Below, piece by piece: positions 26,511 to 27,857 of a DNA stretch of 64,000 nt. The notes beneath the pieces were generated by a model. It did not search any database, was not told where the DNA came from, and worked only from the letters and a program-made list of their open reading frames with translations. Within the stretch, counting starts at the first letter, position 1. Each line of letters begins with the position of its first letter. Location: the NCBI GenBank assembly GCA_054600435.1, contig BAAIJX010000032.1:1-64000 (forward strand). Direction: 5' to 3'. This DNA is from Neophaeotheca triangularis (lineage: Eukaryota). The translations under genes and the position numbers were made by a program.

Positions 26511-27857
26511 TTAAGCCCTAATGTCTAACTCCTTCGAAACCTTAGCAATATTAGCCTCTAGCTAATCTTTAGCACTAATAGACTTCTCTACATTCTCTCC
26601 TACTAATAGAGTAGCGTCGTCCCTATAGCGAATCCTAAGGAAGCCTAAGAGACTAGAGGGCTTCTTTAGAGCCTCATCCTCCTTATTATCCGACTCTAAC
26701 AAAGAAGAAGAACTTCTACTAGAAGACACCTCTAGTAGCATACTAGCGTCGTCCCTACTACTCTTCCGAACTAGACCCTTAGTCTCTACTACTAGTACCT
26801 TAGGAGCTACTACTAGCGCTAGTATACTAATAGTCTTATCGTAAGGTAGTGAGTTACTAAAACTAGGTATATCGCGTACTGGCGAAGAAGAAGGCATAGC
26901 ATGATAGTAGCTAGACATCTCGCTAATAAGTATAGACATTTCTATGTAGTAGATAGCGATAAGCCTCTCAATAGTATTAGTGACGATCATAGCGAAGTTG
27001 CGAGTTTAATCCATGATTAGGTATACCATGTCATGTAGAGTTAAGATCTTATCGTTATTAGGACTAGAATGACGAAGGCCCCCTATTAGAATGATAGCGC
27101 GGTTATTCTTATAGAAGTACTAGGAGACCTTAGTATCGACTTCTAAGACCTTAAGGTGTATTAGCGAACTAGTAGCGCTACTACTAGCATGATTAGCATA
27201 ATAGAGTATAGCGGTATAGTTCATCTAGACATAGTAGCCATACTAGCTCGCGAGGTCAGGAATGATCTAAAGAGACATTAGTGAAAACTTGTAATGACGA
27301 TAGAGCTATAGTAGGCTTACCTCGATACATGATTACTTCATGTTGAAATAGGTGTTGTATACCGATCTGGTCGCGGAAGGTACTATCTTACATAGTAGGA
27401 TAAAGTCGATAGACCTATTAAGAACATTACTTAAGAGCTCCTTAATGTAGCGCGAATAACGAGGGTAATTAACATCGATAGGAGTAAGCTCCTTACCCTT
27501 ATCGATGTTAGCGAAGTAATAGAACACTAGCGTACCCTTATTAGACTTACTCTCCTCACTATTATTACCTATAGTATACTTACGTTTCGAGCCTATGCCC
27601 TTAACGGCTATAGCATGCTTCATACTAACACCCTCTGACTTCAAATCCTTCTTAATAGACTTCGACTTATTAACTAGATCCTTTAACTCCTCCTCTATAA
27701 AACTACTAGCATTAGTCTAATAGTAGCCCTTAGTTATAAAGACTCCCTTAGTAATAATCGCTCTATCTATAGTAAAGGTACCCTTACTATTAATAGCTAT
27801 AGCGCTAACGCTATAGTCGACTAGCGCCTTTAGATGCTTACTAATATGTAGAGACAT
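26511..27857 (-). pseudogene. Antisense accessory gene of element 2 (about 430 codons, putative 54-nt intron 27320-27267) with a degenerate six-Cys cluster
   Basis: ORF-track fragments 27998-27717, 27644-27333 and 26990-26562 all share one frame separated only by TAA/TAG. Motif Y-S-R-Y-x18-C-x10-Y-N-T-Y-x6-C, followed by GAG|GTAAGC...CACTAAT...TTTAG. Confidence 0.6.

Follow-up and report, generated by a model that had tools for sequence, protein, structure and literature searches.

A RIP-degraded antisense frame between pol and the 3′ long terminal repeat of a Ty3/Gypsy element from Neophaeotheca triangularis: probable remnant of an orphan accessory gene

Organization of the locus

Systematic computational analysis of a 64,000-nucleotide stretch of the fungus Neophaeotheca triangularis (GenBank assembly GCA_054600435.1, contig BAAIJX010000032.1, positions 1 to 64,000 of the forward strand; hereafter the window) was done to characterize an open reading frame (ORF) that runs antisense to the gag-pol frame of a degenerate retrotransposon, designated here as element 2. 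The frame occupies positions 27857-26511 on the minus strand, between pol and the 3′ long terminal repeat (LTR), and it is probably, at a rough probability of 0.65, what remains of a genuine antisense accessory gene, specific to its Ty3/Gypsy element family, that was killed by repeat-induced point mutation (RIP). A neighbouring Gypsy element, element 1, bears an antisense ORF in the corresponding position, and a preliminary description made from the letters of the DNA had proposed that both genes belong to one spliced, six-cysteine accessory system.

Element 2 (21026-28791, plus strand) possesses the hallmarks of an integrated LTR retrotransposon. Its 5′ LTR (21026-21248, plus strand), in which the initial TA is a RIP-mutated TG, and its 3′ LTR (28569-28791, plus strand) are both 223 bp long and are about 86% identical in the BLAST alignment, or 87% as mean column identity in the MAFFT alignment. 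The 5-bp target duplication reads GTCGG at 21021-21025 and GTTAG at 28792-28796, the two copies differing by RIP-type transitions only, and a polypurine tract, AGAGAGGGAGG (28554-28564, plus strand), is located 4 nt upstream of the 3′ LTR.

The degenerate gag-pol frame extends over 21273-26297 on the plus strand. Pfam domains were recognized in it for RVT_1 (about 23256-23735, E-value 3.5e-19), RT_RNaseH (about 23937-24326, E-value 2.2e-18) and SH3_Tf2-1 (25905-26090, E-value 1.4e-09), all on the plus strand, along with a weak match to the integrase zinc domain Integrase_H2C2 (about 25002-25172, plus strand, E-value 0.0028). The Pfam family Chromo gave no match on the pol of element 2, and the chromodomain-like tail, past which the first stop lies at 26295, was judged by eye alone. 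The heavy RIP load of the element can be read from its base composition, with a GC content of 0.372, a TpA/ApT ratio of 1.8 and a (CpA+TpG)/(ApC+GpT) ratio of 0.41, the two ratios being 0.74 and 1.18 in the gene-rich part of the window taken for comparison.

From the first pol stop to the 3′ LTR the interval measures 2271 bp, matching the figure of about 2.2 kb put forward earlier. Within it, the antisense frame comprises 449 codons, from an ATG at 27857 to a TAA ending at 26511, and is interrupted by only 10 stops inclusive of the last one. The other five frames of the same segment hold 36 in 449, 35 in 448, 73 in 448, 45 in 448 and 77 in 448 codons, and the openness of the antisense frame is far beyond chance; the pol frame itself, with 65 stops in 1015 codons, is worse broken. 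The three minus-strand ORF fragments from which the gene had originally been assembled (27717-28052, 27333-27716 and 26562-27005) do share this one frame. The end of the ORF falls either at codon 431 (TAG at 26564) or at codon 448 (TAA at 26513-26511). Upstream of the start codon, a spacer of about 0.7 kb (27858-28553, minus strand) extends to the polypurine tract, and an internal antisense promoter presumably lies in it. Tandem repeats in the interval between pol and the 3′ LTR are trivial ones only, and the spacer is free of notable repeats.

Less-mutated copies of the antisense gene

Homologues were sought by scanning 1.84 billion representative proteins exhaustively with HMMER at an E-value of 0.001 or below, the query being the window frame with its stops written as X. 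The scan gave two proteins, both of Logan source: P0122, of 156 aa, aligned to query residues 2-156 with 66% identity, and P0123, of 112 aa, aligned to residues 278-390 with 58% identity. Each derives from a 4151-bp contig, probably one and the same. A word-index search with a three-sequence profile added P0124, a protein of 283 aa from a 1483-bp contig that covers query residues 1-283 with 73% identity, and nothing further among 8000 scored candidates. A search with alignment A2 that was confined to proteins of 30-60 aa, in which none of 133 candidates passed, was uninformative.

The differences between the window and its partners run predominantly in the direction of RIP. With P0122, 104 of 156 residues are identical, and the 52 differences comprise 40 attributable to C-to-T or G-to-A changes in the window copy, 5 in the reverse direction and 7 that fit neither. 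With P0123, 64 residues are identical and the 47 differences divide into 30, 5 and 12 in the same order. The load is unequal among the copies. P0122 and P0123 taken together show RIP at none of 5 informative ATG codons and at none of 30 Arg columns (27 kept, 3 with non-RIP residues). In P0124, 3 of 4 ATG codons are gone, as are both cysteines; in the window copy, 4 of 8 ATG codons are gone and 23 of 39 Arg columns hold RIP products. As judged from these alignments, the three proteins represent less-mutated copies of the antisense gene of element 2.

All eight internal stops of the window frame that are covered by the partner copies correspond to Gln (seven) or Gln/Arg (one) there, while the window stops at codons 432 and 449 fall outside partner coverage. 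P0124 is uninterrupted from Met1 to residue 283, P0123 is open over residues 277-390, and the start Met is common to all three copies. Since the covered stops derive from Gln or Arg codons and since P0124 and P0123 are open, the ancestral antisense ORF was real and ran unbroken for at least 390 codons; its full length before RIP was probably 431-448 codons. The broader statement of the preliminary description, that a second and unrelated Gypsy element carries an antisense gene in the same slot as element 1, is borne out by the frame and by its partners.

Nested insertion or gene capture was tried as the principal explanation of the frame and was rejected, there being no flanking terminal repeats and no host homologue in the exhaustive scan.

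The intron-like stretch

The preliminary description took the antisense gene as apparently spliced, on account of a 54-nt stretch at 27320-27267 (minus strand) that reads GTAAGC...CTAAT...TAG and lies in frame, with TAG codons 184 and 197 inside it. The canonical-looking motif is present: the stretch starts with GT, its branch-like CTAAT is placed 12 nt before the 3′ TAG, and its length is typical of fungal introns and a multiple of 3. What did not stand is the need for its removal. P0124 reads through the 54 nt as 18 residues, and both TAG codons correspond to Gln there. Because the stops were made by RIP from Gln codons, P0124 is open and the length is a multiple of 3, splicing is not required for the reading frame.

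A genuine in-frame spliceosomal intron in the same orphan gene could nonetheless be accommodated. At the signal sites, P0124 has Glu-Val-Ser, Ser-Leu-Thr and Leu-Gln, residues that would allow the signals to have been there before RIP, and such an intron could persist because the gene would be antisense to the RNA that is reverse-transcribed. The weight of the motif itself depends on the composition against which it is set. In un-mutated compositions, a motif this strict is expected just 0.02-0.09 times per 1347 nt, whereas the composition of the window predicts about 0.25 per 1347 nt, and 23% of dinucleotide shuffles of the ORF contain at least one. Equally strict intron-like motifs occur in element 2 three times on the minus and twice on the plus strand, and a second strict match, at 27583-27527, sits in clearly conserved coding sequence, which counts against the intron together with the openness of the stretch in P0124 and the origin of its two stops. 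On balance, a real intron at 27320-27267 is a possible but rather doubtful addition to the accessory-gene reading.

Properties and putative role of the product

The product of the antisense gene of element 2 can be divided into three regions of differing character. Residues 51-125 are charged and include a basic cluster, KRKR or KRAK, near residues 91-93, the K[KR]x[KR] form being found at residue 91 in P0122 and at residue 93 in P0124; residues of about 130-320 form a hydrophobic, Tyr-rich core; and the tail is Ser-rich and acidic. There are only one or two cysteines. Going by its sequence, the product is an orphan and not a zinc-cluster protein.

Under the accessory-gene reading, the gene would be driven, convergently with pol, by a promoter of its own located either in the 0.7-kb spacer or in the 3′ LTR, and the product would be a nuclear factor that serves the life cycle of the element in transcription or in nuclear steps. 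By analogy with the known systems discussed below, a nuclear accessory role is the most likely one, and expression of the antisense gene is assumed on the same analogy.

Several observations weigh against the accessory-gene reading. The family comprises three fragments only, probably from two contigs, and these are known here as proteins alone. The frame of P0122 closes immediately past Cys156, at a position held by Lys in the window and by Asn in P0124, and RIP offers no explanation for this break, after which the next ORF fragment, P0123, restarts at residue 277. Pfam searches of all six frames of element 2 and of its ORF pieces gave no match on the antisense strand, a profile search of PDB sequences with the product reached a best E-value of 0.74, the ESM Atlas yielded no usable match for P0124, either whole or as residues 126-283, and the AlphaFold model of P0124, computed from a 4-row alignment, has a mean predicted local distance difference test score (pLDDT) of 30.7 and is unusable. 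Furthermore, what points to a nuclear location is a four-residue basic cluster together with analogy.

An alternative view is that the ORF has no protein function, either because antisense RNA is what matters, through control by double-stranded or small interfering RNA, or because the ORF is incidental to a captured or foreign fragment. No homologue of known function was found, with three related fragments among billions of proteins, and the available text of PMC7264820 discusses roles of antisense RNA for ORFs of this kind. Against this view, a frame open for at least 283 codons in P0124, and for at least 390 when the copies are combined, would be very unlikely without coding constraint in an active ancestor, the failure of the exhaustive scan to find a host-gene homologue counts against capture, and no terminal repeats mark a nested insertion. 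An ORF devoid of protein function is therefore considered improbable, and clearly more so than an intron within a functional gene.

The six-cysteine motif

The remaining alternative is that of the preliminary description, in which the gene is a spliced antisense six-Cys (Zn2Cys6-like) gene that belongs to a Cys6 accessory system common with element 1. It was derived from the stretch YSRY-x18-C-x10-YNTY-x6-C (27329-27460, minus strand, codons 134-177), in which four Tyr residues were taken to be RIP-mutated Cys. All the letters of this motif are present as described, namely Y134, Y137, C156, Y167, Y170 and C177 (codons at 27458, 27449, 27392, 27359, 27350 and 27329, respectively), and an in-frame TAA at codon 175, within the x6 of the motif, had gone unmentioned. 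Zn2Cys6 binuclear clusters have the spacing C-x2-C-x6-C-x5-12-C-x2-C-x6-8-C. A flexible six-position [CY] pattern turned up in only 0.6% of 5000 residue shuffles of the frame, and it also occurs three times in the other five frames of element 2, so that its occurrence in the antisense frame is only mildly unusual. RIP has indeed turned Cys into Tyr in this family, as P0124 has Tyr where the window (positions 156 and 177) and P0122 (position 156) have Cys.

Comparison of the copies position by position told against the first Cys pair of the motif. At positions 134 and 137, the window, P0124 and P0122 all have Tyr. Position 156 is Cys in the window and in P0122 and Tyr in P0124, and it is the sole Cys of the motif found in a second copy. 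Positions 167 and 170 are Tyr in both the window and P0124, and position 177 is Cys in the window alone and Tyr in P0124, these three lying outside the coverage of P0122. Because Tyr134 and Tyr137 are present in P0122, a copy without RIP at its informative sites (0 of 5 ATG codons and 0 of 30 Arg columns for P0122 and P0123 together), the first C-x2-C would never have existed; the two Tyr residues are almost certainly original, and the first Cys pair of the six-Cys proposal is largely refuted by this comparison. The preliminary description had itself named Tyr in less-mutated copies as the outcome that would undo the motif, and at these two positions that is the residue seen.

For positions 167 and 170, the sole partner, P0124, is itself RIP-mutated and cannot discriminate, and by our own estimate the chance that both were formerly Cys is well under 10%. 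Even with Cys at both, the predicted pattern would be four cysteines with an x18 gap and no Zn2Cys6 cluster, the spacing past the first pair being x18 as against the x6 of Zn2Cys6, and all available copies have Tyr at the four positions in question. Neither Zn_clus (PF00172) nor any other Pfam family matched the window frame, P0122, P0123 or P0124, even at an E-value of 10.

The general fate of tyrosine codons in this DNA is in keeping with that outcome. For 27 window Tyr residues a partner residue is available; it is Tyr in 15 cases, Arg in 11 and split between partners as Arg/Cys in 1, so that no window Tyr among them derives from Cys alone, and a single alignment column holds Arg, Cys and Tyr across the three copies. 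Because 11 of the 27 window Tyr correspond to Arg (CGY to TAY, two changes), RIP would hit CpG besides CpA/TpG in this genome. Arg-derived Tyr is common, and restoration of Tyr to Cys by eye is unsafe in RIP-mutated DNA unless a less-mutated copy is at hand.

Although the protein of element 1 truly displays a C-x2-C-x6-C-x10-C-x2-C-x6-C pattern, two of whose Cys are Tyr in the window copy, the original Tyr pair, the x18 spacing, the absence of a Zn_clus match, the preponderance of Arg over Cys among the sources of window Tyr and a profile comparison with element 1 at 0.10-0.15% probability (next section) leave the six-Cys proposal very little chance.

Comparison with the antisense gene of element 1

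The antisense ORF of element 1 (14327-14836, plus strand) has 170 codons with 3 stops, starts 88 bp inward of the 3′ LTR and overlaps the tail of pol. It belongs to a far better populated family, with 123 homologues at an E-value of 0.01 or below among 187 candidates, the named ones being from Cercospora, Elsinoe, Hortaea, Sporormia and lichen fungi. Four Cys are invariant in 65 aligned members and two more are kept in at least 90% of them, the spacing in a 20-member alignment is C-x2-C-x6-C-x10-C-x2-C-x6-C, and window residues Y36 and Y57 are Cys in relatives. The family also has a conserved C-terminal motif.

Weak Zn_clus matches were obtained for 44 of the 65 members, with a best E-value of 2.7e-4, and the family member P0004 scored 11.5 bits against Zn_clus, for which the cut-off is 21 bits. 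The AlphaFold model of the element 1 protein is confident (mean pLDDT 81.6) and contains a long helix over residues 63-118. Its top Foldseek matches in the PDB are the DNA-binding domains of Pho7, Put3, Gal4 and Hap1, none of them significant; the best E-value was 0.79, and none of 40 matches reached 0.001. Taken together, the Cys pattern and the model identify the predicted product as a Zn2Cys6-like protein with a coiled coil. Of the 120 relatives listed, about 20 are on contigs of 5.0-8.3 kb, which is the size of a retrotransposon, and many on contigs of about 1-1.5 kb; these sizes fit an element-borne gene. Of the two antisense genes, that of element 1 seems the more interesting.

The two ORFs are alike in their slot, in their orientation and in being carried by neighbouring Gypsy elements. 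They differ in that the element 1 ORF encodes 170 aa with 123 homologues, an invariant Cys pattern and a long helix, while the element 2 ORF is an orphan. In profile-profile comparison with hhalign, the element 1 family (alignment A1) gave a probability of 0.10% against the element 2 window frame and of 0.15% against alignment A4, that is to say, no relation. As far as can be judged from these profiles, the two antisense genes share position, and neither ancestry nor motif. For element 2, the idea of a Cys6 accessory system that is shared and spliced does not stand.

Relation to known antisense genes

Genes that run antisense between pol and the 3′ LTR have already been documented in plants, where they form a category with a name of its own, and in the Boty element of Botrytis. 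Boty carries an extra antisense gene, brtn (Zhao et al. 2011, Virology 417:248, as cited in the accessible portions of PMC8365987, PMC7264820 and PMC4227169). Like element 2, it is a fungal Ty3/Gypsy element with a gene between pol and the 3′ LTR that is antisense to gag-pol. The host of Boty probably belongs to another class, the relatives named for the element 1 protein being from Dothideomycetes and lichen fungi, and the likeness considered here is one of position and orientation.

In plants, the antisense ORFs of this interval include gene23 of maize Grande, that of rice RIRE2, ORF4/TRP28 of Silene Retand and that of Phaseolus PvRetro13, according to the available text of PMC7264820 and PMC11963269. 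In the same excerpts, the Grande product is described as nuclear and as transcribed from its own promoter, and the Retand product is predicted to bind DNA. The plant ORFs resemble that of element 2 in slot and orientation, in being family-specific and, for the most part, in lacking database similarity, and a nuclear or DNA-related regulatory role is proposed for them in these sources (PMC7264820, PMC11963269). The plant elements differ, so far as the excerpts describe them, in being mostly no chromoviruses and in having a longer interval between pol and the 3′ LTR (2.9-6.6 kb in Retand), often with tandem repeat arrays, unlike the minor repeats of element 2. A Pfam search for a TRP28 or SMC domain in the element 2 frame or its partners found none.

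The ORF of element 2 is internal to the element and on the strand opposite to pol, following pol and preceding the polypurine tract and the 3′ LTR, and in this it matches the antisense ORFs of Boty, Grande, RIRE2 and Retand. Comparison with its partners further indicates a long ORF kept in several copies, namely three fragments from probably two contigs. A more distant parallel is HBZ of human T-cell leukemia virus type 1 (HTLV-1), an antisense gene at the 3′ end that is expressed from the side of the 3′ LTR, has a spliced form and yields a nuclear product. HBZ differs in being a basic leucine zipper protein of a primate retrovirus with no sequence relation to the element 2 product, and it serves as an analogy only. 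Antisense genes of HTLV and of its simian counterpart STLV are mentioned in the accessible text of PMC11963269.

In fungi, the available part of a Gypsy survey carries a figure legend that speaks of an "additional ORF with unknown function" (PMC2864245), and in the available text of a survey of fungal LTR elements the word "antisense" is absent (PMC3248453). The literature searched, in which few subscription journals were covered, yielded no description of a fungal Gypsy element whose antisense gene encodes a zinc cluster or bears an intron.

Element 2 would accordingly stand as a second, unrelated fungal example beside the Zn2Cys6-like one. It is tempting, though still speculative, to suppose that Gypsy elements of fungi, probably of Dothideomycetes, generally use the interval between pol and the 3′ LTR to house antisense accessory genes that are specific to their lineages and unrelated to one another. 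The widespread Zn2Cys6-like, DNA-binding protein of element 1, with over 120 relatives, would be one such product, and the orphan of about 440 aa in element 2, perhaps with an in-frame intron, would be another. If true, such genes could represent retroelement-encoded regulators comparable to the accessory genes of retroviruses and largely unannotated in fungi.

Genomic setting

The GC content of the window is 0.50-0.60, interrupted by AT-rich blocks near 12-14 kb and 21-29 kb. In element 1 (13795-20888), pol runs on the minus strand and the LTRs, of 444 bp each, lie at 13795-14238 and 20445-20888. Elements 1 and 2 adjoin each other 5′ LTR to 5′ LTR and diverge, with a gap of 137 bp between the two LTRs (20445-21248). 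The mutation load of the two elements contrasts, the LTRs of element 1 being 98.4% identical with a TpA/ApT ratio of 1.27, against about 86% and 1.8 in element 2. BLAST and tblastn searches within the window found no further copies of element 2 or of either antisense ORF.

An AT-rich, RIP-like block at 12000-13790 (GC 0.37, TpA/ApT 2.01) adjoins element 1 and has no BLAST similarity to element 2. At the far end of the window, the segment 57000-64000 has a GC content of 0.44-0.48, below that of the adjacent gene-rich DNA, and may represent a further repeat region.

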